This document shows positions 10,233 through 52,181 of a DNA stretch of 64,000 bases, piece after piece. A model generated the notes under the pieces. It made no database searches. It had not been told where the DNA came from and saw nothing but the letters and a program-made list of their open reading frames with translations. Both the position numbers and the translations under genes were made by a program. Position 1 is the first letter of the stretch. Every line of letters begins with the position of its first letter. This stretch comes from Candidatus Yanofskybacteria bacterium RIFCSPLOWO2_02_FULL_44_18 (GTDB lineage: Bacteria; Patescibacteriota; Minisyncoccia; 2-02-FULL-40-12; GWA2-44-9). The stretch lies in the NCBI GenBank assembly GCA_001794755.1, contig MGKT01000006.1:115045-179044 (forward strand). Direction: 5' to 3'.

Positions 10233-11231
10233 CTATCTGTTGCACTCAAGAGAATTAACCGTCCACGTTGTGCCAATAACACGGGCATAAACCCAATCCC
10301 CAGTTTCGTTCTTCATCTGGAAACATGTACCCTTGGATGAAGCCGCACTGCTGCCAAACAGGATACTAACTGTGGCAGTATTAGTGGAACCCCCACCAAA
10401 CTCAGCAGTATACAGCCCGGAAGATTGCGAAGCCGTGGATGAACCAACTAGAAAATTGCTGGATACGCTTAAATCACCAGTGAATGAATGGGAAGCGGTG
10501 CCGGCTCTAATTCTACCCGATGTTTCAAAATTTCCTGATACAGAAACCTTGGCATCAAAGAAGGCATTGTCGTCAAATTCTACCAGACCTGAAACGAGAA
10601 TATCGTCGGCCGCAGCTAATGAGTGGCCGGTCGTACCGATACCAAATCTAGAGTAGGCCACGGATGCGGCACCAAATGTGCCACCGGCTTGGAGAGTATT
10701 AACGGTAAAGAAGTATGATGCCGAGGCCGTGCCTTGGACTTCAAATTTTGTGGATGGTGCGCCGCCAATAGCCACATTGGCATCAAAGAAGGCATTGTCG
10801 TCAAATTCTACCAGACCTGAAACGAGAATATCGTCGGCCGCAGCCAGTCCATGGCCTGTCGTGCCAGCACCGAATCTTGAGTATGCCACGGATGCGGCTG
10901 CAAATGTGCCTCCGGCTTGAATGGTGTTGATGGTAAAGAAGTATGATGCCGAAGCCGTGCCTTGGACTTCAAAAACAGTAGCAGGATTTGTGGTATTAAC
11001 ACCGACTCTATTATTGGTAGTGTCGACAATAAGCGAAGTCACAGTTCCGGCCGCATTCTGGAATTGCGCTGCCGTGGCAGAACCAACGGTTTGCGTAAAG
11101 GTACCCGTGGTACTCATGTTCGTCCCCAAGGTGCTGGCAGCAAAAGCGCCGAAAGGCATGAGAGCGAAGGCAAAAATCAAGGCGACCGAAAAAATCGACC
11201 TATAAACAGACCCATTACGAAGTTTTTTCAT
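10233..11231 (-). CDS. Secreted G/A/T/S-rich protein with internal tandem 76-aa repeats
   Basis: Signal peptide; two near-identical units (FEVQGTASASYFFT[IV]NT[IL]QAGGTF...DDILVSGLVEFDDNAFFDA); 228-nt DNA period. Confidence 0.6.
   Translation of the reverse strand: MKKLRNGSVYRSIFSVALIFAFALMPFGAFAASTLGTNMSTTGTFTQTVGSATAAQFQNAAGTVTSLIVDTTNNRVGVNTTNPATVFEVQGTASASYFFTINTIQAGGTFAAASVAYSRFGAGTTGHGLAAADDILVSGLVEFDDNAFFDANVAIGGAPSTKFEVQGTASASYFFTVNTLQAGGTFGAASVAYSRFGIGTTGHSLAAADDILVSGLVEFDDNAFFDAKVSVSGNFETSGRIRAGTASHSFTGDLSVSSNFLVGSSTASQSSGLYTAEFGGGSTNTATVSILFGSSAASSKGTCFQMKNETGDWVYARVIGTTWTVNSLECNR
10520..11010. repeat. Tandem direct repeat, 228-nt period, about 2 copies (coding repeat within CDS 10233..11231)
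   Basis: ggcatcaaagaaggcattgtcgtcaaattctaccagacctgaaacgagaatatcgtcggccgcagc occurs at about 10551 and again at about 10779. Confidence 0.8.
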
Positions 11232-17475: not shown

Positions 17476-20400
17476 TTACCTCTGGAATGTCGGACCGTAC
17501 AACGGAACACTTCTCAAGACACCGGTTGTTGAAGCCTGGTCCAAAGAATTGGTGTTTCCTGCATAGTCAGCCACCCAGTTAATCAATCCTGCTATATCAT
17601 CCTGTAATGTGACCTGGAAGTAGTCCGGAGCCCTGCCGGTCGTTCCGGCGTTGCCATAGTGCTGCGTCGGATTGTCCAGACGGATGCTGAAGGTTCTTGT
17701 TCCACCAGCTGGAATTTCTATATCCTGACTTCCAAAGTTGAAGGATATAGAAGCGTTCTTACCAGGCTGTACACCGGAGGCCGCGGCCGCCATGCTGATG
17801 GTTTGGCTTGTGTCAGCCGCACCAGGCGTACCGATGCTTCTCAATGTACCCGTATCAATCACGGTTCCGGATTCATCCAATATCGAGAAGGTGGTGCTGG
17901 TCGTGGTATTTACCGATGACTGACCGGAAGCCACAATCTCAAAGTTTATAGAACCAGAACTGTTGTGTTCATTGTCAAATCTCAAGTTGGAGCCGGGCGC
18001 ACCCATGGCTGTTACCGAGAATTTGAACACGATTGGTGTACCGAGCAAGCTGTAAGGCGACGAAAGCGCGACCTGTTCAATCTTCGGGAAGACCCGATAG
18101 ACATACTGGTCAAACGCGCCGGCCACATCAGCGATGTTCGAACCTGTGCCGTCAATGACAGTTCCTGAACCGTCGCCGACTGCTCTAAAGCCGTTAACAT
18201 AGCTGTTGTTGAACGAATCCATAAGATCCAAGGAGAAGAATACATCTTGCGGAGTGCTCGCAATTTGAGTCGCACCTTCCGTCTTGGTCTTCATGTTGGC
18301 GTTCACGGTAATATCCAAGCTGCCGTCCTGCGGTACATAAGGCCGGTTGGCATCGGTTGACTCCCAATTGAAGTTTACCGAAGCTCCCTGACCGAATGAC
18401 TGAGTTCTGGTGATGGTACTACCAGCCTTGTTCTTGTAGGACAAGATTACTTCTTTGACGTTCGCGGCCGCGTCTGCCTTTTCAGCGGCGGTCGAAGCAG
18501 CAATCGTCAGTTTTTCTATGTACTGGCCTTCATCCGTCGCGCTTATCCTGAACTTGGATATCGGCGCGTTGGTTTGGCCCCAGTAGACAGCACCTTTAAC
18601 CGGGCTATCAGCCGAGGTGGCCAATGTCATCGAACCGGAATTCTTGACCGTCAAAACTTGGGTCGGGCTGGTCGTGCCGTTTACGCCTGCGCTAGCTGCG
18701 CCCGGATTCACAGTGTTGGAATCAGAATCCAATGCCGTAACGTCTCCGGTGGCAGCGATATCAAAGGCATAAAGGTCTCCTGCCGTACCCGATGCTTGGT
18801 TATTGGACAAATCAACTCTAACCAGCATCGTTTTGGATGTGCCGGCCGGAATATTCCAATCCAGATTACCGAAGGTCATCGTACCAGTTCCAGAAGTACC
18901 TAATGAATTGTTGGTTACTTTTTCTGAACCGGCAATCAATGCGCCAGTTCCAGATTCATATAGCTGAACCTTGGCCATGGCGCTGGAAACCGAGACCGAG
19001 TTACCGCCATCTTCGACACCCTCATCAAAGGTTGTCGTATCAGCGGCATAACCGGTTATCTTAATCGTGGTCACTTTAAGTGCTGAAGCTTGGCTGGCGG
19101 CAAATGTGATGCCAACCGCGTCAACGTCCTTTGTACCTCGAATCTTTGTCTGGTCACTTGGCGTACCGGCCAAGCTCAAAGTCAAAGACGAAGCGGAAAG
19201 GGTAATGTTCGGACCGTTAATATCAGCTCGAGGGACAATATCAGCCGCTGCGACTGAAGTGTTTGTGCCCGAGTATTTCATTACGGTTACATCACCGGCA
19301 TCATCCGAGTAATCATCAAGAATTGCTCTGATGATACTTCCGTCAATTAATTCACCGGTAACATTGGCTGTGTTTATATCAGCCGTAACCTTGAAGTTAT
19401 ATGTCGTACCGGCCATTAAATCGAGGACATCGGTAAATGATTCCTGAACACCGCCTCCAGCCGGACAGCTGGTTGTGTCGTCGGCATGATCAAATGCTGT
19501 GGCATCCTTCGGACCGATGACAACAGTGTTGGTATCCTCGTTCCAGACTTTGAAGTCTGTAACGTCATCCCAATCTCCTTCGGTGGTTTCAGTATCATAT
19601 GTTCCGTCACCAGCTTGGTCAGCACAGAGAGTAAACTCTGTCTTCTTAACCTCAATGTTGCTGGCGGCAGTCACTGAATACCTCAAGAGAGTAACATCAG
19701 TGGCCGTGGTGCCGACAGTGCTGGCATTAGGACCATTGAATACTAATGTCAATGCTCCACCCTGAAGAGTCAAAGTCGTCGCTTCATCGGCGGTATCAAG
19801 GGTATTGGTGCCCTCAGCCATACCTTGGCCGTATTGGTCCCCAACAGCTAAAACATCTGAATTGTTCTCAAAATAGAGATCAATCGTTTCATCTTTCTTT
19901 CCGCCCACATCTCCATAGACCTTGAATGTGGCATTACCGCCTTTGGCGATAGAATAGCCGGAACCGAGGTCAAATACGAGATAGCTGTCGGAAGTTACCG
20001 AACCGGACCATTCCATGGCACCGGTTTTTATCTTGACATTGGTCAAATCGGCCGGTTTCAAGTTTCCGCCGTTTAACAGAGTCAGGCGCTTAACTGAAGC
20101 ACCTTCGGTATTGGCCGTTAACTTGAATTCCGCGAGCTGGGCTTGCTTCTGACCCACGGTTGGGTTTGAAAGCGAACCGACTTCAGCGACATCAATTGTT
20201 CCGGACGAGGTTCCTGAAGTCGTAAAGTTATTGCCGCTTAACGGTGTACCTGAAATAGCGGCTCCACCCGTTGCAACCATGCCCGTCAACTGAAGATAGT
20301 TAACGTTGCCGGCCGTATTTGCGGAAGCCATATCAGCCACGATCGAAAAATCTTTTGTTCCATTGACTGCTCCATCAGTGGAGTCCAGCAAGAACGTCAC

Positions 20401-21213
20401 CTCACCGGTCGAAGATGAGAACGACTTGCCTGAAGTCAATCTGCTGGCGCCTTGATATACGAAAACGTTATCAAAGTCGTCTGTCTGACCAGCACCCAAT
20501 CTCTTCACAGTTAAGGTGTTAACCGTGCCGCTGCCGTTGACTCTCACTCGCAGCATCTCAACGCCAACTGCGTTTAGAGTTATTGTCTGCGCGCCTGGGT
20601 TATTTGGAGCCAAGCTTACGGACAATGGGCCGGACGGGGTCGGAGTCGGTGATGTCCCCGGTGTTCGAGAGTAGTTCGGAACCTGGTTTACTGAAGTGTA
20701 GTTTGAACCCTTCGCGTACCAGTTGAACTCGTTGTTGTTGATGCAGAATACTTTTTTGAAGAAATTCGCGTCATCAGCAACTGCTTGAGCGCCGGTGGTG
20801 TTTACCCAGTGAAGGACACCTGTGTCCTCGCCTGTAGTTTCAACACCATATACTTTCTGATCTCCAGTTTCACAGTTTCGGAAAAGTCCTGAAGTCGGAA
20901 ATGCGTCGCGCGCTGTGGCGCTGACATTTTTGACACTCGCAAAACCTCCGAGATGACCGTAGAAATTGAAGATGGCCGGATTCAAGAACAATCTCTTGTA
21001 TCCCTGCTCGTTGACGATGTATATATCCGGATCGTCAGAACCGGCTGCGCTGATCGTATCGCCTTCTCTCAGGCCATAGTCAGAGGGCATTGCCGCACTC
21101 GCCGATGGGACGAATACCGCAAACCCAGCCAACGACAATATTGTCGTTGCCGCAGTTAGAGTCGCGATTGCTCTTTTGAGCAAATCTCGATTCCTGCGTG
21201 ATAAACTATTCAT
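17476..21213 (-). CDS. Large (1245 aa) secreted surface/adhesin-like protein, T/S/G/A-rich beta-rich repeats
   Basis: Signal peptide; N-terminal approx. 130-aa module about 75% identical to the one in 8565..9794; TPSPTPTPSGP linker; long low-complexity beta-rich body. Confidence 0.7.
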   Translation of the reverse strand: MNSLSRRNRDLLKRAIATLTAATTILSLAGFAVFVPSASAAMPSDYGLREGDTISAAGSDDPDIYIVNEQGYKRLFLNPAIFNFYGHLGGFASVKNVSATARDAFPTSGLFRNCETGDQKVYGVETTGEDTGVLHWVNTTGAQAVADDANFFKKVFCINNNEFNWYAKGSNYTSVNQVPNYSRTPGTSPTPTPSGPLSVSLAPNNPGAQTITLNAVGVEMLRVRVNGSGTVNTLTVKRLGAGQTDDFDNVFVYQGASRLTSGKSFSSSTGEVTFLLDSTDGAVNGTKDFSIVADMASANTAGNVNYLQLTGMVATGGAAISGTPLSGNNFTTSGTSSGTIDVAEVGSLSNPTVGQKQAQLAEFKLTANTEGASVKRLTLLNGGNLKPADLTNVKIKTGAMEWSGSVTSDSYLVFDLGSGYSIAKGGNATFKVYGDVGGKKDETIDLYFENNSDVLAVGDQYGQGMAEGTNTLDTADEATTLTLQGGALTLVFNGPNASTVGTTATDVTLLRYSVTAASNIEVKKTEFTLCADQAGDGTYDTETTEGDWDDVTDFKVWNEDTNTVVIGPKDATAFDHADDTTSCPAGGGVQESFTDVLDLMAGTTYNFKVTADINTANVTGELIDGSIIRAILDDYSDDAGDVTVMKYSGTNTSVAAADIVPRADINGPNITLSASSLTLSLAGTPSDQTKIRGTKDVDAVGITFAASQASALKVTTIKITGYAADTTTFDEGVEDGGNSVSVSSAMAKVQLYESGTGALIAGSEKVTNNSLGTSGTGTMTFGNLDWNIPAGTSKTMLVRVDLSNNQASGTAGDLYAFDIAATGDVTALDSDSNTVNPGAASAGVNGTTSPTQVLTVKNSGSMTLATSADSPVKGAVYWGQTNAPISKFRISATDEGQYIEKLTIAASTAAEKADAAANVKEVILSYKNKAGSTITRTQSFGQGASVNFNWESTDANRPYVPQDGSLDITVNANMKTKTEGATQIASTPQDVFFSLDLMDSFNNSYVNGFRAVGDGSGTVIDGTGSNIADVAGAFDQYVYRVFPKIEQVALSSPYSLLGTPIVFKFSVTAMGAPGSNLRFDNEHNSSGSINFEIVASGQSSVNTTTSTTFSILDESGTVIDTGTLRSIGTPGAADTSQTISMAAAASGVQPGKNASISFNFGSQDIEIPAGGTRTFSIRLDNPTQHYGNAGTTGRAPDYFQVTLQDDIAGLINWVADYAGNTNSLDQASTTGVLRSVPLYGPTFQR

Positions 21214-21840: not shown

Positions 21841-23406
21841 TTAATTGTTTACGCTGTTTGTCTTGCCCGGAGTTCCGTTTATGGCTGAACCGCTTGCATC
21901 AAGACCGTTCTTAGTCACTCCGTCATTCGTACCCCAACTATTTTGACTTTCTCCCGATCCGGTATTTACCCTTTCCATCGTCGATCTGCTGTCCTTATTT
22001 CCGCCATACCAGCCGTTATCTCCGCATGTGACTTTATCAATTAAAACCCCGTTATTATCCCTTAATTCCAATATTTCGCACGAATCTGATAATGCCCCAG
22101 TGTAAGTCTGATTCGCCGATACATCGTAAACAGAAGTATCATCTGTTCTTTCCAACAAGAAATATCCATTCGCCGCTATTAAACCACTCATATTTATTTG
22201 CGGATCAGGGTTTGACCCTGTTAACGATTTCAGTGTCCAACCTGATATATCAATTGCCAGTGTCGAGTAATTGTATAATTCAATCCATTCGTCAGAAGCA
22301 GACGAGCCGGTCCCCATCCAGGCTATCTCATTTATAACGACTTGGTTTGTATTTTGCGGGGTTGGTGTTGGGGTTGCTTGCGGTGAGGTTGTCAAAACCG
22401 GTGTCACCTCTGGTGTCGGTAATGGTGTCACTGTCGCCAATGGTGTCGGTGACGTGGTGACAGTTGGTGACATTGTTGGTGTCACCAACTGGGTAGGTGA
22501 CGGTGACGGACTTGGTGATGGTGACACCTGTGGTGTCGGCGCGGGAGTTGCAGTGCTGTTGGAAGATTTGGGTGTGCCCTTTATTGAATTTCCTTTGGCA
22601 TCTCTGCCTGTGGAATTTCCAAAAAATGTTTTCCAATTGCTCGGCCCGTTTGAGTATATAAGAGGGTCGATTCTTTCCATTGATAATCTCGACGCGCTCT
22701 CGCCGGCATGCCATTTATCGCCCCATGTGCCGACTCTGTCTATCTCGCCACGCGTATTCTTAAGCAGCAGCACTTCGCCTGAATCAGACAGGCCATTACC
22801 AAAACCCGTTGTATAATCAGCCTTTATATCGCTAATGGCATTATCATCCGTGCGCTCGATGAGAAAGTATCCCCTGGCGGTAATATGCGTTCCGTTTGGA
22901 AAAATAATCTTGGGCGACTCCGACTCTGTAGTCAGCGCCCAGCCAGACATGTCGACATCAAATGACTCGTTATTGTATAACTCTATCCACTCATCGAACG
23001 CCGATGCCAAGGTACCGGACCAGCCGATTTCATTTATGACCACTCTGCCGTCATTGGGCATGGTGACGGTTGGTGACACTGTTGGTGACAGTCCGTTGTT
23101 TGTTGGTGTCACTTGAGGTGTCACTTGAGGTGTCACCTCAGGTGACACCATGCGAGCAGGTGACAGTTTGGTGTCACCTGCAACCGTCACCTGTTTCGAC
23201 GAGCTCACAGCAGGCAATAGCGATGGTGACACCTTGGATGATCTGGCACCATTATTTTTTGAGGGAGCTGTGGATAAAGTGCTTTCAACGGCATCTCCAA
23301 TTGCAGATAATGTCTTTTCTTTGTCGCCTTGATGGGCAAAAATAGTGCTGACGACTGCACCAACCGATAAAGCAAGAATAATATATTTATTTGACCCCAT
23401 AAACAT
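21841..23406 (-). CDS. Secreted protein with two lamin-tail domains (LTD) separated by PT-rich linkers
   Basis: Two copies of VVINEI[GA]W.G.....DEWIELYN.S...D[MI]SGW.L...FLIERTDD; SPSPSPSPSP/TPTPTP linkers. Confidence 0.7.
   Translation of the reverse strand: MFMGSNKYIILALSVGAVVSTIFAHQGDKEKTLSAIGDAVESTLSTAPSKNNGARSSKVSPSLLPAVSSSKQVTVAGDTKLSPARMVSPEVTPQVTPQVTPTNNGLSPTVSPTVTMPNDGRVVINEIGWSGTLASAFDEWIELYNNESFDVDMSGWALTTESESPKIIFPNGTHITARGYFLIERTDDNAISDIKADYTTGFGNGLSDSGEVLLLKNTRGEIDRVGTWGDKWHAGESASRLSMERIDPLIYSNGPSNWKTFFGNSTGRDAKGNSIKGTPKSSNSTATPAPTPQVSPSPSPSPSPTQLVTPTMSPTVTTSPTPLATVTPLPTPEVTPVLTTSPQATPTPTPQNTNQVVINEIAWMGTGSSASDEWIELYNYSTLAIDISGWTLKSLTGSNPDPQINMSGLIAANGYFLLERTDDTSVYDVSANQTYTGALSDSCEILELRDNNGVLIDKVTCGDNGWYGGNKDSRSTMERVNTGSGESQNSWGTNDGVTKNGLDASGSAINGTPGKTNSVNN
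22380..22560. repeat. Low-complexity GGTGTCAC/GGTGAC-type tandem repeats encoding PT/SP linker (coding)
   Basis: Imperfect repeats of ggtgtcac/ggtgacgg units; a second block at 23085-23220. Confidence 0.7.
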
Positions 23407-23942
23407 TAGTCTGGTCTTGAGGAATAAAACACGGCCCTATTTTCATTCATTTTTGATATGAGGCCGGCTGACAGAAGTTCTTTGAGATTTCTTATAACCG
23501 TTCTTTTGGGCAGCAGATTGAATTCGTCGACGACGTCTTTCGACCGGACGTTTCGATTTTTTTTAATAAAATCTAGTATCTTTCCCTTGTTTCCTTTAAA
23601 CAATTCTGTATTTGCTGACCTAGTTGAAGGCCGGCTGGTCGTTTTAGTATTTTTTGGATTATTGGACCTGTAAACATCAACTTTGAGCTGGAGAATATAT
23701 TTTTTGGCGTTTAGAATTTCTTCCTTAATGTCCGCTTGGTCATGCTCGATAAAATCCAGGCAATCAATCAGTTCATTTAAAATATGAATGAGGGAATTGT
23801 TCTTGCCTGAATCAGCAAGAACGGAAATCTGTATATCAATATATCTTTTAATTTTCTCATCGAGTTTTGAAACATAAAATTGGTCGCTTAGCCGAGCAAG
23901 CACTTTTGAAAGAGATAGGAGAGAGTCGGCAAAAACAGACAT
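23406..23942 (-). CDS. Hypothetical protein with C-terminal winged-helix-like DNA-binding domain
   Basis: ILDFIKKNRNVRSKDVVDEFNLLPKRTVIRNLKELLSAGLISK resembles wHTH; 1-nt overlap with LTD gene. Confidence 0.4.
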   Translation of the reverse strand: MSVFADSLLSLSKVLARLSDQFYVSKLDEKIKRYIDIQISVLADSGKNNSLIHILNELIDCLDFIEHDQADIKEEILNAKKYILQLKVDVYRSNNPKNTKTTSRPSTRSANTELFKGNKGKILDFIKKNRNVRSKDVVDEFNLLPKRTVIRNLKELLSAGLISKMNENRAVFYSSRPD

Positions 23943-33044: not shown

Positions 33045-33310
33045 TCCGCGGTAGCTCAATGGTAGAGCGGCGCCCTGTGAAAGAATCGCAGCTTTCAGAC
33101 GAAAGTCTGACTGAAACTTTTCGGGATATCGGTGAAGCCTTGACTGGTAATACCGAGGGAACCCCGACAATAAATGTCGGGGGCACCGTAGAGACTAGAT
33201 ACCGAAGATCCGTACGATTAAATTCACGGATAAGATATAGTCCACGCCGTAACGAAAGTTATGGATTATGTGTAAGGCGATGGTTCCAGGTTCGAGTCCT
33301 GGCCGCGGAG
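33045..33310 (+). tRNA. tRNA-Asn(GUU) interrupted by a group I intron in the anticodon loop (exons 33045-33078 and 33273-33310)
   Basis: 5' exon TCCGCGG-TA-GCTC-AATGGTA-GAGC-G-GCGCC-CTGT; 3' exon TAA-GGCGA-TGGTT-CCAGG-TTCGAGT-CCTGG-CCGCGGA-G. U1-A72 and G73 as in bacterial tRNA-Asn. Alternative splice junction would give Thr(UGU). Confidence 0.7.
33079..33272 (+). ncRNA. Group I self-splicing intron (compact, about 194 nt, no ORF)
   Basis: Core elements GTAGAGACTAGA (R-like) and AAGATATAGTCC (S, exact consensus); candidate IGS GCAG pairing exon CTGT with U.G; ends in G. Confidence 0.7.
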
Positions 33311-33321
33311 CAGACATTTAC

Positions 33322-48106: not shown

Positions 48107-49015
48107 CTATATTTTTAAAAATTTTCGGATAGCTATAAGGCTCGAGGCCGTTCCCAGCAGAACTCCGGCCAGCAGAATCAAGAATATATATTGAAAGAAG
48201 TTGGATATGAAATAACTGATTACGCTCACCTCCGGCATAAGGGAGGCAATTCGAGGCGATATTATATACGCCATCGGATAAAACAAGACCGCTGTCACTC
48301 CGGCCGCGATTACGCCGTAGACGGCGCCCTCAACCAGATATGGAGCTTTAATCTGCCAATTTGACCCGCCCACCAGCCTCATTATTTCTATCTCCTGCTT
48401 TTGATTATATATAGTCAAGCGTATGGTATTGAATGTCACCAGAACGGCTATCACCGCTAGAACCAATGTGGCCAGAAGCCCCCAATTCTTTAAACCGCCG
48501 GCAATTCCCTCAACCCTCTGTATCACAGCCTCATTTTCATAATAGTTTATCTTGTCGATTAATGTCCGGTATTTGTTGCCTTCCAACGCATTGGCTATTT
48601 CCGCGTACTTGGATGTATCTTTGGCTTTAATATTCAGAGAAGCCTGGAGGGGGTTTTCGGCCAATTCGGCCAGAGAATCTTGTATCAATGCGTCGCCGGC
48701 ATGGCGGGCCTTAAAATCGGCAAGGGCTTGCTCCCGGGAAATATATGTCACGCTTTTCACGTTCGGCATCGCTTCGACGTCTTTTTTAACTTCCAATATT
48801 TCATTCTCGTTGGCATCCTGCTTGAAATACGCACTGACATCAACTTTGTCTTGTAGGCTTGACACTATCTCGTCGGATAAGAAATTAACCGTCATTAATC
48901 CTGAAAACAGAATCAAAACCAGGACCATAATTCCTGTGGTGCCGATGCTCGTGTAAGTGTTGCGCCGGAAATTAGTCCAGGCGACATCAAATATTCTCTT
49001 TATTTTTTTCTTCAT
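48107..49015 (-). CDS. ftsX: Cell division permease FtsX
   Basis: Four TM with large periplasmic loop; FtsX topology; downstream of ftsE with overlap. Confidence 0.85.
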   Translation of the reverse strand: MKKKIKRIFDVAWTNFRRNTYTSIGTTGIMVLVLILFSGLMTVNFLSDEIVSSLQDKVDVSAYFKQDANENEILEVKKDVEAMPNVKSVTYISREQALADFKARHAGDALIQDSLAELAENPLQASLNIKAKDTSKYAEIANALEGNKYRTLIDKINYYENEAVIQRVEGIAGGLKNWGLLATLVLAVIAVLVTFNTIRLTIYNQKQEIEIMRLVGGSNWQIKAPYLVEGAVYGVIAAGVTAVLFYPMAYIISPRIASLMPEVSVISYFISNFFQYIFLILLAGVLLGTASSLIAIRKFLKI

Positions 49016-49707
49016 ATCACGTATTTGCCCTGCTCCATTTGGTCTCTGACTATTTTACCCGTGTCCATAGTTATTACCCGTCGGCCTATGGCGTTTACGA
49101 CTTCGTGATCATGGGTCGCCAATATTATCGTCGTTCCCAGTTCATTTATCTTTGTTAATAATTTTACCACATCGTATGTATTAACCATGTCCAAATTTCC
49201 TGTCGGCTCATCGGCCAGTATTACTTTGGGTCTGTGAATTAAAGCTCGAGCCACGGCTAATCTTTGTTTTTCGCCTCCCGAGAGTTGATGCGGAAAGTTG
49301 TTCATTTTATCGGCCATCCCGACGATGCCCAATACTTTAGGCACATCTTCGGCAATTTCTTCCGGCTCGACGCCGCAAACTTCCATTGCAAAAGCTACGT
49401 TTTCAAACGTGGTCTTGTTGGAAAGCAATTTAAAATCCTGGTAAACCGTTCCGATTTTTCTGCGTAAATACGGAACTTCACTTTGGGGAAGATCATTAAG
49501 ATTCATGCCTTCCACGGTTACAACGCCTTCGGTCGGCTTTAATTCGTGAGTGAGAAGTTTTAATAACGTCGACTTGCCTGCTCCAGAAGGTCCGACCAAA
49601 GACACGAATTCTCCATGCTTAATATGCAAATTGATTTCGTCTAGAGCCTTGAATTCTCCGTTTCCTTTCACATGGTAAACGGCGGAAACATCTTCAAATT
49701 TAATCAT
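49012..49707 (-). CDS. ftsE: Cell division ATP-binding protein FtsE
   Basis: GPSGAGKSTLLK Walker A, LSGGEKQRLAVARAL signature, ILADEPTGNLD Walker B. Confidence 0.9.
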   Translation of the reverse strand: MIKFEDVSAVYHVKGNGEFKALDEINLHIKHGEFVSLVGPSGAGKSTLLKLLTHELKPTEGVVTVEGMNLNDLPQSEVPYLRRKIGTVYQDFKLLSNKTTFENVAFAMEVCGVEPEEIAEDVPKVLGIVGMADKMNNFPHQLSGGEKQRLAVARALIHRPKVILADEPTGNLDMVNTYDVVKLLTKINELGTTIILATHDHEVVNAIGRRVITMDTGKIVRDQMEQGKYVI

Positions 49708-50449
49708 TATCTATAAACTTGTCCAAGTCGCCGTCCAGAACTTTATCGGGTTGCGATGATTTAATTCCGGTGCGGTGATCTTTAACCATTTGATACGGAT
49801 GCAGAACATACGACCTTATCTGGTTCCCCCATTCTATGGATCCGGGCTTGGCTTTCAATTCCGATATTTCTTTGACATGCTCTTCCTCCATTTTGTTTAT
49901 GAGCCGAGAATATAAAATCTGCAATGCTTTTTCTTTATTCTGGGCTTGAGATCTTTCTGATTGGACTGCCACGGAGATTCCTGTCGGTATATGAGTGATT
50001 CTGACCGCCGTCTCCAGCTTATTCACGTTTTGGCCGCCGGGGCCCGATGAGCGGAAAGTGTCAATTCTTAATTCTTTGTCTTCAATTTTTACTTCTCGAG
50101 CTGATATCTCCGGCAATATTTCCACCAAGGCAAATGATGTGTGCCTTAAATTTTTTGCCGAGAAAGGGGATATTCTTACCAGCCGGTGGACGCCATTTTC
50201 TTTTTTTAACGCATCATATGCGCCTTTGCCGGAAATTTCAGAGGCGGCGCTTTTTAAACCCTTCTGTTCCCCCAATGATTCATGCAAAACAACCATGTTC
50301 CAGCCTTTCTTCTGAATATACCGCTGATACATTCTAAAGAGCATGCCGGCCCAATCTTGAGCGTCCACTCCTCCAGCCCCAGAGAAGATGTATAAAAGGG
50401 CTTTATTTTTGTCATATTCCGCCACTCGGGAATTATACCAAAAAAACAA
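49700..50449 (-). CDS. prfB: Peptide chain release factor 2 lacking N-terminal domain 1 (domains 2-4 only; TTG start as called)
   Basis: SPF (LVRISPFSAKNLRHTSF) and GGQ (SGPGGQNVNKLETAVRITHIPTG) motifs; aligns to E. coli RF2 from about residue 110; only 65 nt upstream before divergent gene. Confidence 0.8.
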   Translation of the reverse strand: MFFWYNSRVAEYDKNKALLYIFSGAGGVDAQDWAGMLFRMYQRYIQKKGWNMVVLHESLGEQKGLKSAASEISGKGAYDALKKENGVHRLVRISPFSAKNLRHTSFALVEILPEISAREVKIEDKELRIDTFRSSGPGGQNVNKLETAVRITHIPTGISVAVQSERSQAQNKEKALQILYSRLINKMEEEHVKEISELKAKPGSIEWGNQIRSYVLHPYQMVKDHRTGIKSSQPDKVLDGDLDKFIDND

Positions 50450-50514
50450 GCTTATTCAAACAACTGTAAATATTTTTCACGCTCGATTCACCACAGAAGG
50501 TTATTCTATGTTCT

Positions 50515-51045
50515 ATGGGAATCAAAACAAATGCAATAACCTTTGCGGCCGTAATCATTTTTTCATCACAAACGGCGTTCGCGTCTACGGCCGGAGAAAA
50601 TACTTATGACATCAGCGGCAACTTAGAACCGATTATGGACCCGGCGATTGCGCCAGATAACATCATGACTTCTAATGTTGAAATGCTGCAAAAAAGGATA
50701 GAAATAGATTTAAGCGAGCAGACATTAAGCTACTATTACGGCCACCATTATAAAGTTGATGAGTTTAAAATATCTTCAGGTCTGCCCAAAACGCCTACTC
50801 CTACGGGTGAATTTGAAATAAAAGATAAAATCCCCGTCAAAGCTTACCGCGGCAGAGATTATTATTTGCCGAACACTCTTTGGAATTTGAAATTCATCGA
50901 CAGCGGATATTATATCCATGGCGCTTACTGGCACAACAATTTCGGTCAGCCCATGAGCCACGGCTGCATTAATGTCCCTTATTCAGAAATGGAAAATCTA
51001 TATGTTTTCGCCGATATCGGCACGAAAGTCATTATCAAAAAATAA
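50515..51045 (+). CDS. L,D-transpeptidase (YkuD domain)
   Basis: HGAYWHNNFGQPMSHGCINV catalytic His/Cys motif; signal peptide. Confidence 0.8.
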   Translation: MGIKTNAITFAAVIIFSSQTAFASTAGENTYDISGNLEPIMDPAIAPDNIMTSNVEMLQKRIEIDLSEQTLSYYYGHHYKVDEFKISSGLPKTPTPTGEFEIKDKIPVKAYRGRDYYLPNTLWNLKFIDSGYYIHGAYWHNNFGQPMSHGCINVPYSEMENLYVFADIGTKVIIKK

Positions 51046-51068
51046 CTTTATGAGATAACCAACATCAC

Positions 51069-51143
51069 TGGAGCCGCCTCCCAGATTTGCACTGGGGGTC
51101 TTCGCTTTACGAAAGCGCTGCTTTACTACTAAGCTAAGGCGGC
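51069..51143 (-). tRNA. tRNA-Thr(CGU), encoded CCA, atypical T-loop (G55)
   Basis: Reverse strand GCCGCCT-TA-GCTT-AGTAGTA-AAGC-A-GCGCT-TTCGTAA-AGCGA-AGACC-CCCAG-TGCAAAT-CTGGG-AGGCGGC-T-CCA. Confidence 0.55.
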
Positions 51144-51177
51144 AATTGTATTAATTTTACCAGAAATTAAGCGAACA

Positions 51178-51202
51178 AAAAAGGCCGTGTGGCCTTATTT
51201 AG
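51178..51202. terminator. Bidirectional hairpin terminator
   Basis: aaaaaggcc-gtgt-ggccttattt. Confidence 0.6.
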
Positions 51203-51755
51203 CTCCCCAAATTCCTGACCTTAATCTTTGACCAATCTGTTTTCTTCTCTCGACTTCGTCCAGAATGTCTTTGAATATTCTTTCTAGAGGGTCATAAAAA
51301 ATTCCCAATGTCCAATTTCCGGCATGGCGCGAAGTAAAAAAACGATGACTGCCATGAAAATGTTTAAATGCCCATGTCGCAACTTTACGGCCTTTTTTCT
51401 TGACTTCAACTTTGGCTCCAACCTCATGAAAACCGCATATGAGGCAAATTTTTGTGTATGATACGATCTTGCCGGATCTTACTTTTTCCCATTCTACATG
51501 AAATAGGTGGCGGCATATTCTTTTTAATTCGACAATTTTTTGAGCCCGGCTCTTAAATTGAGGATTGTTCTTTTTATCAATTATTTCCTGATGTAAACTT
51601 CTATCTTCTTCCGGGACAAGGGTACAAATTAAGGCTGGGGACATTGCATTTATCATTGCAGCTTCATGGCGCCGTGGAAATGCAATAAGTTTTCCTGTTT
51701 CCATAGTGCTCTCAAGTAACTGATGAAATTTTACATGGCAGAGTGAAAATTTCAA
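51195..51755 (-). CDS. Hypothetical Cys/His-rich protein (possible zinc-binding nuclease-like) nested between two tRNA genes
   Basis: 186 aa, TTG start; CLICGFHEVG...HFHGSHRFF motifs. Confidence 0.4.
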   Translation of the reverse strand: MKFSLCHVKFHQLLESTMETGKLIAFPRRHEAAMINAMSPALICTLVPEEDRSLHQEIIDKKNNPQFKSRAQKIVELKRICRHLFHVEWEKVRSGKIVSYTKICLICGFHEVGAKVEVKKKGRKVATWAFKHFHGSHRFFTSRHAGNWTLGIFYDPLERIFKDILDEVERRKQIGQRLRSGIWGAK

Positions 51756-51758
51756 GGA

Positions 51759-51829
51759 GCGGGATACGGGAGTTGAACCCGTGTCTTAACCTTGGGAAGG
51801 TCACGTTAGACCGCTTAACTAATCCCGCT
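51759..51829 (-). tRNA. tRNA-Gly(CCC)
   Basis: Reverse strand GCGGGAT-TA-GTTA-AGCGGTC-TAAC-G-TGACC-TTCCCAA-GGTTA-AGAC-ACGGG-TTCAACT-CCCGT-ATCCCGC-T. Confidence 0.75.
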
Positions 51830-52181
51830 TGAAAATATTTTTAATTTTTTGCCAAAATGAATAATCGCCTTCTTCGGACTTGCTGGCGATAGTTTCTTTG
51901 TTTTTATCTTCATAAAAGAAAACGACCTGCTCTCCGATTGATTTATAGTTCAACTTTATCCTCGCTTCCTTATCCAGAAATCCGGGATTATTCAAATTGG
52001 CAATATACAGTTCAAGGGCCCGGTTAGTTTTTTCGATATCGGAGGCTTTTGATTCCAGTCCCGATATTTCAGAAGCCAGCTCTTTTTTCCTGTCGTCGAG
52101 CTTCAGTAAGTTAACGCCGAGCCAAAAAATCATAATAATCAACGCCGCTGTTATTATTTTCAATGGAAGTATGTTTCTCAT
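51819..52181 (-). CDS. Septum formation initiator-like (FtsB/DivIC-type) membrane coiled-coil protein
   Basis: N-terminal TM, then coiled coil LDDRKKELASEISGLESKASDIEKTNRALE; last codons overlap 5' end of tRNA-Gly. Confidence 0.55.
   Translation of the reverse strand: MRNILPLKIITAALIIMIFWLGVNLLKLDDRKKELASEISGLESKASDIEKTNRALELYIANLNNPGFLDKEARIKLNYKSIGEQVVFFYEDKNKETIASKSEEGDYSFWQKIKNIFKRD

Follow-up and report, generated by a model that had tools for sequence, protein, structure and literature searches.

A prfB gene for a release factor 2 without domain 1 in a Candidatus Yanofskybacteria genome, and related domain-1 reductions in the candidate phyla radiation

Introduction

Can a housekeeping release factor 2 (RF2) do without its N-terminal domain? 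The question is raised by a prfB homologue on the reverse strand of a 64,000-nucleotide stretch of Candidatus Yanofskybacteria bacterium RIFCSPLOWO2_02_FULL_44_18 (assembly GCA_001794755.1, contig MGKT01000006.1, positions 115,045 to 179,044); the whole of this stretch is called the window here, and coordinates are given within it. Domain 1 contacts the bL12/uL11 stalk in model bacteria and is linked to RF3-assisted recycling. To our knowledge no characterised housekeeping RF1 or RF2 is without it, and the evidence for its dispensability that we know of comes so far from engineered E. coli truncations. A first-pass annotation of the window had proposed that this gene encodes domains 2-4 only. 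The analysis below agrees: the product is a 241-aa RF2 without domain 1 which, on sequence comparison, is the end point of a series of domain-1 reductions across bacteria of the candidate phyla radiation (CPR).

Results

The features on which the argument rests are the following.

49700..50425, reverse strand: prfB coding sequence, a 241-aa RF2 of domains 2-4 only (GTG start 50425-50423, TAA stop 49702-49700)
50162..50170, reverse strand: SPF tripeptide 'anticodon' for UGA/UAA specificity (S94 P95 F96), invariant in the homologue alignment
50030..50038, reverse strand: GGQ peptidyl-tRNA hydrolysis motif (G138 G139 Q140), likewise invariant
50426..50449, reverse strand: TTG-initiated in-frame extension of 8 residues (MFFWYNSR), containing the -10 box, not conserved in homologues
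50432..50459, reverse strand: sigma-70-type promoter (TTGAAT 50459-50454, 16 nt, extended -10 TGgTATAAT 50440-50432), with 10 of 12 consensus matches plus the TG

The NCBIfam prfB model, TIGR00020, is matched over positions 111-350 of 353 (366.4 bits, E=1e-109), a match that chance could not account for, and the Pfam matches cover PCRF positions 96-194 of 194 and the RF-1 domain (PF00472, E=2e-40). In the alignments to E. coli RF2 (365 residues, PDB numbering) and B. subtilis RF2 (366 residues), which have no large gaps, residues 2-239 of the 241-aa form pair with residues 121-358 of both. The match to RF2 begins at the boundary between domains 1 and 2. The earlier figure of about 22 codons ahead of the domain-2 equivalent was too high: the first RF2-aligned residue is preceded by 9 residues of the TTG-initiated open reading frame (ORF) or by 1 residue of the GTG-initiated ORF. 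The best Foldseek matches of an AlphaFold model of the product (mean pLDDT 72) are RF2 structures, namely 2ihr (E=5e-24) and 1gqe (TM-score 0.70).

Both motifs that had been read from the sequence, SPF and GGQ, are kept. In an alignment of 26 sequences with a mean column identity of 72%, they and about 100 other columns are invariant, and SPF was found in every one of the 86 loci listed but L076, which the search pattern failed to match (loci and database proteins are given L and P numbers). Three other identities were considered and rejected: PrfH (117.2 bits, cutoff 166.65; the upstream neighbour is a divergent YkuD, or L,D-transpeptidase, gene), RF1 (prfA, TIGR00019; 241 bits, cutoff 423; SPF in place of PxT) and ArfB (NF006718; 51.7 bits, cutoff 100; a match confined to the GGQ loop in a protein with full domains 2 and 4). 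The RF2 model scored best, and the description of the product as a typical RF2 and not a PrfH stands.

Read mechanically from the TTG, the ORF spans 49700..50449 on the reverse strand and encodes 249 aa. An in-frame TGA lies 3 codons 5' of the TTG (50458-50456) and 65 nt separate the TTG from the YkuD gene, both as first annotated, and there is no room upstream for a domain 1. The absence of a CUU-UGA-C programmed frameshift also held, as no in-register CTTTGAN site was found at the locus. The suggestion that the real start lies downstream of the TTG is borne out by the homologues: the 25 aligned with the window protein all start 2-3 residues ahead of a conserved EY(E/D)KNKA, and P0001, the RF2 of Candidatus Yanofskybacteria bacterium GW2011_GWA1_44_21, is 100% identical with the same GTG start. 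In the AlphaFold model, residues 1-9 of the TTG form have a pLDDT below 50. Because the homologue starts agree, P0001 starts there and the model shows the 8 TTG-encoded residues as disordered, the true start is almost certainly GTG 50425, and the extension is probably not translated.

The extended -10 reported inside the first codons of the TTG ORF is indeed present, about 3 nt from where it had been placed. The -10 box ends 6 nt ahead of the GTG and no Shine-Dalgarno (SD) motif is present. The arrangement TTGAAx-N16/17-xAxAAT, 6-8 nt before the start codon, recurs in 9 of the 11 loci of the window's clade, seven of which have a GTG start. With only 6-8 nt between promoter and start codon and with no SD motif, the prfB mRNA is probably leaderless or nearly so.

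The gene is neither an assembly product nor a decaying copy. An identical 241-aa gene with the same neighbours is found in three independent assemblies, and the best 120 homologues among 5.8 billion proteins, many of them on contigs 100-445 kb long, are all 238-275 aa in length and 73-100% identical, with a common start and the same architecture (120/120). Compared with ten orthologues, the proportion of nonsynonymous differences (pN) is 0.14-0.21 and that of synonymous differences (pS) 0.76-0.93, the synonymous sites being saturated, which indicates strong purifying selection on prfB.

To find a domain 1 encoded apart from the gene, the N-termini of 23 full-length RF2s were made into a hidden Markov model (HMM), which was applied to six-frame translations. 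Its best score in the 64-kb window and six orthologous loci was E=1.1, i.e. no match, and it matched nothing in the 17 loci that lack domain 1, taken with 5-10 kb of sequence on either side. A low-sensitivity search of the 5.8 billion proteins with the domain-1 profile gave no more than 5 fragments, all from contigs not exceeding 1.2 kb. A core profile found no second class-I release factor gene in the 64-kb window, and no prfA or prfC was found in the 10 kb beyond either window end. The 61 non-overlapping ORFs of the window end in TAA (37), TGA (14) or TAG (10), ftsE itself ends in TGA, and the four tRNAs in the window are all ordinary; it follows that the organism has the standard code and requires RF2 activity.

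A query made from an RF1 consensus masked with X returned, as its best 120 matches, only Bacillota RF1 of about 355 aa, with no CPR RF1 among them. A 265-aa 'RF1' (P0331, L169:3710-4798), adjoining rpmE and prmC on L169, was considered as a natural domain-1-less RF1 and rejected, since it lies on a contig of 2.4x coverage with a 290-nt gap upstream and is probably a sequencing frameshift from a low-coverage assembly.

RF2 loci were sampled from GTDB species genomes (80) and metagenomes (80) and classed by their coverage of the domain-1 HMM. In all, 161 loci were classified, and 3 more were cut by a contig end, where the frameshift site was not assessed. The classes and their in-register CUU-UGA-N sites are as follows.

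Domain 1 full: 110 loci, site with an upstream start in 91 (83%)
Domain 1 partial ('mini'): 34 loci, site in 1
Domain 1 none: 17 loci, site in 0

The value of 83% in the full-length class compares with a published frequency of about 87% for the frameshift among bacterial RF2 genes (PMC5009743). In a neighbour-joining (NJ) tree of the RF2 cores, the window's clade (L001, L004-6, L089-94 and L096), in which 2-3 residues precede the core, is sister to L095 and L098, and both groups lie inside the full-length, frameshift-bearing L097 and L099, whose RF2s are 67% identical to the window protein. The metagenomic L095 (L095:1839-2142; core 71% identical) has a domain 1 of about 85 aa and a non-canonical CUU-UGA-G shift site with no SD-like stimulator, and is an apparent intermediate between the full-length and domain-1-less forms; L098 keeps about 55 aa of domain 1 and has no shift site. 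The clade thus appears nested in an order from full to short to none.

Reduction is also seen elsewhere in the tree. A separate clade (L007, L110, L112, L153 and L155) has only 10-13 residues before the core (MKDLSEKLKD|KYDK), and L102 keeps 7 residues. A further 27 loci, which carry the labels Saccharibacteria, Nomura-, Adler-, Taylorbacteria and Paceibacterota, form a large clade with a remnant of median length 48 aa (range 45-55). In B. subtilis RF2 the counterpart of this remnant is residues 27-72, a helical hairpin with a (P)DFW motif. Together these loci point to at least three complete losses of domain 1 and at least two independent shortenings. Two kinds of candidate were set aside: L132, whose 'mini' domain 1 is a contig-edge artefact, and short non-CPR RF2 representatives (e.g. 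the P0145 cluster, with members of 233-314 aa), which look like partial gene calls and were excluded from the count of natural truncations. In L140, L161 and L147, from lineages in which the gene is not ftsE-linked, domain 1 is 78-90 aa long with no shift site, so the length of domain 1 varies outside the main CPR clades too.

The neighbours of prfB in the window are these.

49012..49707, reverse strand: ftsE (ATG 49707-49705; TIGR02673, 272 bits, above cutoff), overlapping the end of prfB by 8 nt
48107..49015, reverse strand: ftsX (FtsX models, E=3e-56 and 6e-54), overlapping ftsE by 4 nt, the third gene of prfB-ftsE-ftsX
50515-51045, forward strand: YkuD (L,D-transpeptidase) gene (PF03734, E=3e-22), divergent from prfB and 65 nt from the TTG

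Given this 8-nt overlap, ftsE is probably co-transcribed and translationally coupled with prfB. The gene order lepA, divIC, variable region, prfB, ftsE, ftsX recurs in relatives, and ftsE-ftsX lies directly 3' of the RF2 gene in almost every CPR locus, with domain 1 full, partial or absent, whereas most non-CPR RF2 loci have no ftsE-ftsX directly downstream. The interval between divIC and prfB (50515-52181 in the window) varies among orthologous loci. Here it holds a tRNA-Gly(ccc), an orphan ORF (51195-51755, 169-186 aa, no Pfam match), a tRNA-Thr(cgt) and the divergent YkuD gene. The prfB promoter is directly preceded by a tRNA in L006 and L092, and L004 and L005 carry other ORFs in the interval.

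SD motifs are rare in the window. A GGAG core was found upstream of only 3 of 37 called genes among the starts of the window, L001 and L087, and in several genes that come first in their operons a -10 box lies 5-9 nt 5' of the start codon. SD-independent or leaderless initiation is probably a habit of the whole genome and not specific to prfB. The scarcity of SD motifs in the window fits the reported absence of the anti-SD sequence in part of the Parcubacteria (PMC9297842). In a crude test of SD usage against domain-1 state, GGAG or GAGG lay upstream of 9-24% of ORFs in every locus group.

Other features of the window

Two further observations concern the window outside the prfB region. A group I intron (Rfam RF00028) was found at 33069-33264 (50.5 bits, gathering score 50, E=1e-11), within 33047-33313 of the forward strand, flanked by apparent tRNA gene halves (tccgcggtagctcaatggtagagcggcgccct ... 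ggttccaggttcgagtcctggccgcggagca); ARAGORN made no call, and the region 33047-33313 resembles a tRNA gene whose anticodon loop is split by the intron. Three large ORFs on the reverse strand have no Pfam match (17476-21213, 1245 aa; 10233-11231, 332 aa; 23406-23942, 178 aa), and they adjoin a run of TPR/O-antigen-ligase-like membrane proteins and a lamin-tail-domain protein.

Discussion

The window protein would be an RF2 reduced to its codon-reading superdomain (domains 2/4, with SPF) and its catalytic domain 3 (with GGQ). It would enter the A site at UGA and UAA and release the peptide as other RF2s do, and it would serve as the sole RF2 of its organism. With no N-terminal helical domain, its delivery and dissociation would be unassisted and it may be independent of RF3. 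Loss of the 5' part of the gene would also have removed the CUU-UGA +1 frameshift site, leaving RF2 synthesis no longer autoregulated, and the protein would instead be made from a consensus promoter on an apparently leaderless, GTG-initiated mRNA, jointly with ftsE and ftsX. Recruitment and release would be expected to be slower, which may be tolerable in slow-growing cells with small genomes. Truncated E. coli factors make such a protein plausible by analogy: as reported in PMC1586002, Mora et al. (2003) found that N-terminally truncated RF1 and RF2 keep codon-specific release in vitro and still work in vivo, though with slow growth, and domain 1 was dispensable for codon recognition and hydrolysis. 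Moreover, RF1 without domain 1 is still recycled by RF3, and the C-terminal domain of bL12 contacts domain 1 and helps delivery (PMC6076264). The conservation of the window's clade suggests that domain 1 is dispensable for stop-codon termination in nature.

The prfB-ftsE-ftsX slot is common to full-length CPR RF2 genes and the window's gene is nested among them in the tree; for these reasons we consider it likely that the gene is the prfB orthologue and encodes a functional housekeeping RF2, and not a PrfH-like paralogue. It might nonetheless be a specialised paralogue for rescue or quality control, in the style of PrfH or ArfB, with a full-length RF2 encoded elsewhere. PrfH and ArfB likewise lack domain 1 (PMC1586002, PMC6514570), NCBI names the relatives 'release factor-like protein', and the searches of this genome reached the window and about 10 kb per side. 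Against this, the entire decoding region, SPF included, is of RF2 type and does not vary, the prfH and ArfB models score below their cutoffs, no RtcB gene lies within 10 kb on either side of prfB, the gene sits in the canonical CPR slot, and 0 genomes with two RF2 loci were seen among the 80 GTDB loci; we regard a paralogue as improbable. An equally slim chance attaches to a functional RF2 of altered specificity or partners, either as the sole class-I factor reading all three stop codons or with a new ribosomal or accessory partner in place of domain 1. The missing RF1 in the window and flanks, the 10 of 61 window ORFs that end in TAG, and the reduced ribosomes of the CPR (PMC9297842) would agree with this, but SPF and its surrounding residues are of the standard RF2 type, and the absence of prfA from 84 kb is uninformative for a genome of about 1 Mb.

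A split gene, with domain 1 made elsewhere as a separate small protein acting in trans, is less probable still. Nothing positive speaks for it beyond the reach of our inspection, which covered the window and about 10 kb per side; the domain-1 model found no match in the window or in the 17 domain-1-less loci, the protein-database search, of low sensitivity, gave only the 5 fragments, and the in-cis remnants become progressively shorter in relatives (85, about 55, about 48, 10-13, 7 and 2 aa), a pattern of decay rather than fission. We give next to no weight to an artefact or pseudogene, whether through decay, an indel in the assembly, or an upstream frame masked by a wrongly called start. Canonical prfB genes are frequently mis-annotated owing to their frameshift, but here the same sequence occurs in independent assemblies, the upstream frame is closed by a stop 3 codons away, a genuine YkuD gene in divergent orientation lies at a distance of 65-89 nt, the architecture is shared by more than 120 clusters, and pN is low against saturated pS.

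Some points do weigh against the reading of the gene as a functional housekeeping prfB. The TIGR00020 score is 3.6 bits below the NCBI cutoff (370), a shortfall that follows from the missing domain 1 and that accounts for the NCBI naming of the relatives; another domain-1-less type, that of L155, scores 402.6 bits and passes. In E. coli, GTG is an inefficient start codon for leaderless translation, and the start of prfB transcription is inferred from the position of the promoter. The number of independent losses, for its part, depends on a simple NJ tree.

As the RF2 frameshift relies on an internal SD stimulator (PMC5009743), one hypothesis is that loss of the SD interaction could have weakened the frameshift and favoured downstream starts. 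More broadly, and more doubtfully than the orthology of the gene, termination may have been rewired in several CPR lineages, with class-I factors, possibly including RF1, lacking the domain that interacts with the stalk and RF3, with RF3 absent, and with the ribosome or another protein compensating. Domain 1 might then have been lost repeatedly because neither bL12 recruitment nor SD-stimulated frameshift feedback was selected in small, slow-growing, SD-poor cells.

A natural clade with a 241-aa RF2 that apparently terminates at UGA and UAA, together with the 85-, 55-, 48-, 10- and 7-residue remnants of its relatives, forms a ready-made deletion series. It could be used to probe the role of domain 1 in recruitment speed, recycling and accuracy, and to ask how RF2 levels are set without frameshift feedback. 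Genomes with such genes should not be scored as lacking prfB.

Comparison with known release factors

A full-text literature search found no description of a domain-1-less or short-domain-1 RF2 in the CPR, nor is such a factor mentioned in a comprehensive survey of release-factor evolution (PMC6514570). Compared with canonical RF2 (E. coli, B. subtilis and T. thermophilus), the window protein aligns end to end over domains 2, 3 and 4 with 45-49% identity, has both SPF and GGQ, and has the same fold (TM-score 0.65-0.70 to 2ihr and 1gqe). It differs in lacking about 120 N-terminal residues (domain 1), and its gene differs in having neither the CUU-UGA-C +1 frameshift nor the internal SD stimulator, with a GTG placed directly behind the -10 box.

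PrfH (RFH; TIGR03072) shares the absence of domain 1 and has a codon-recognition-like domain and GGQ, but the shared absence is not diagnostic: in PrfH the 'anticodon' region has diverged, and its gene, invariably accompanied by rtcB, has a sporadic distribution, whereas the window protein has an intact SPF and appears to be a vertically inherited prfB orthologue. ArfB, of about 140 aa, consists of a GGQ domain and a basic C-terminal tail with no codon-recognition domain, unlike the window protein with its full domains 2 and 4.

Within the CPR, full-length RF2 genes share the position upstream of ftsE-ftsX, and the CPR RF2s with a domain 1 of about 48 aa are also prfB orthologues 5' of ftsE-ftsX with SPF, GGQ and no frameshift site; those proteins keep the helical hairpin with (P)DFW, whereas the window protein keeps none of domain 1. 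In domain content the window protein equals the engineered E. coli RF1 and RF2 truncations of Mora, Zavialov, Ehrenberg and Buckingham (2003; as cited in PMC1586002 and PMC6076264), which consist of domains 2-4. Those are laboratory deletions that grow slowly in vivo, whereas the form described here is naturally fixed across a whole clade and under purifying selection.

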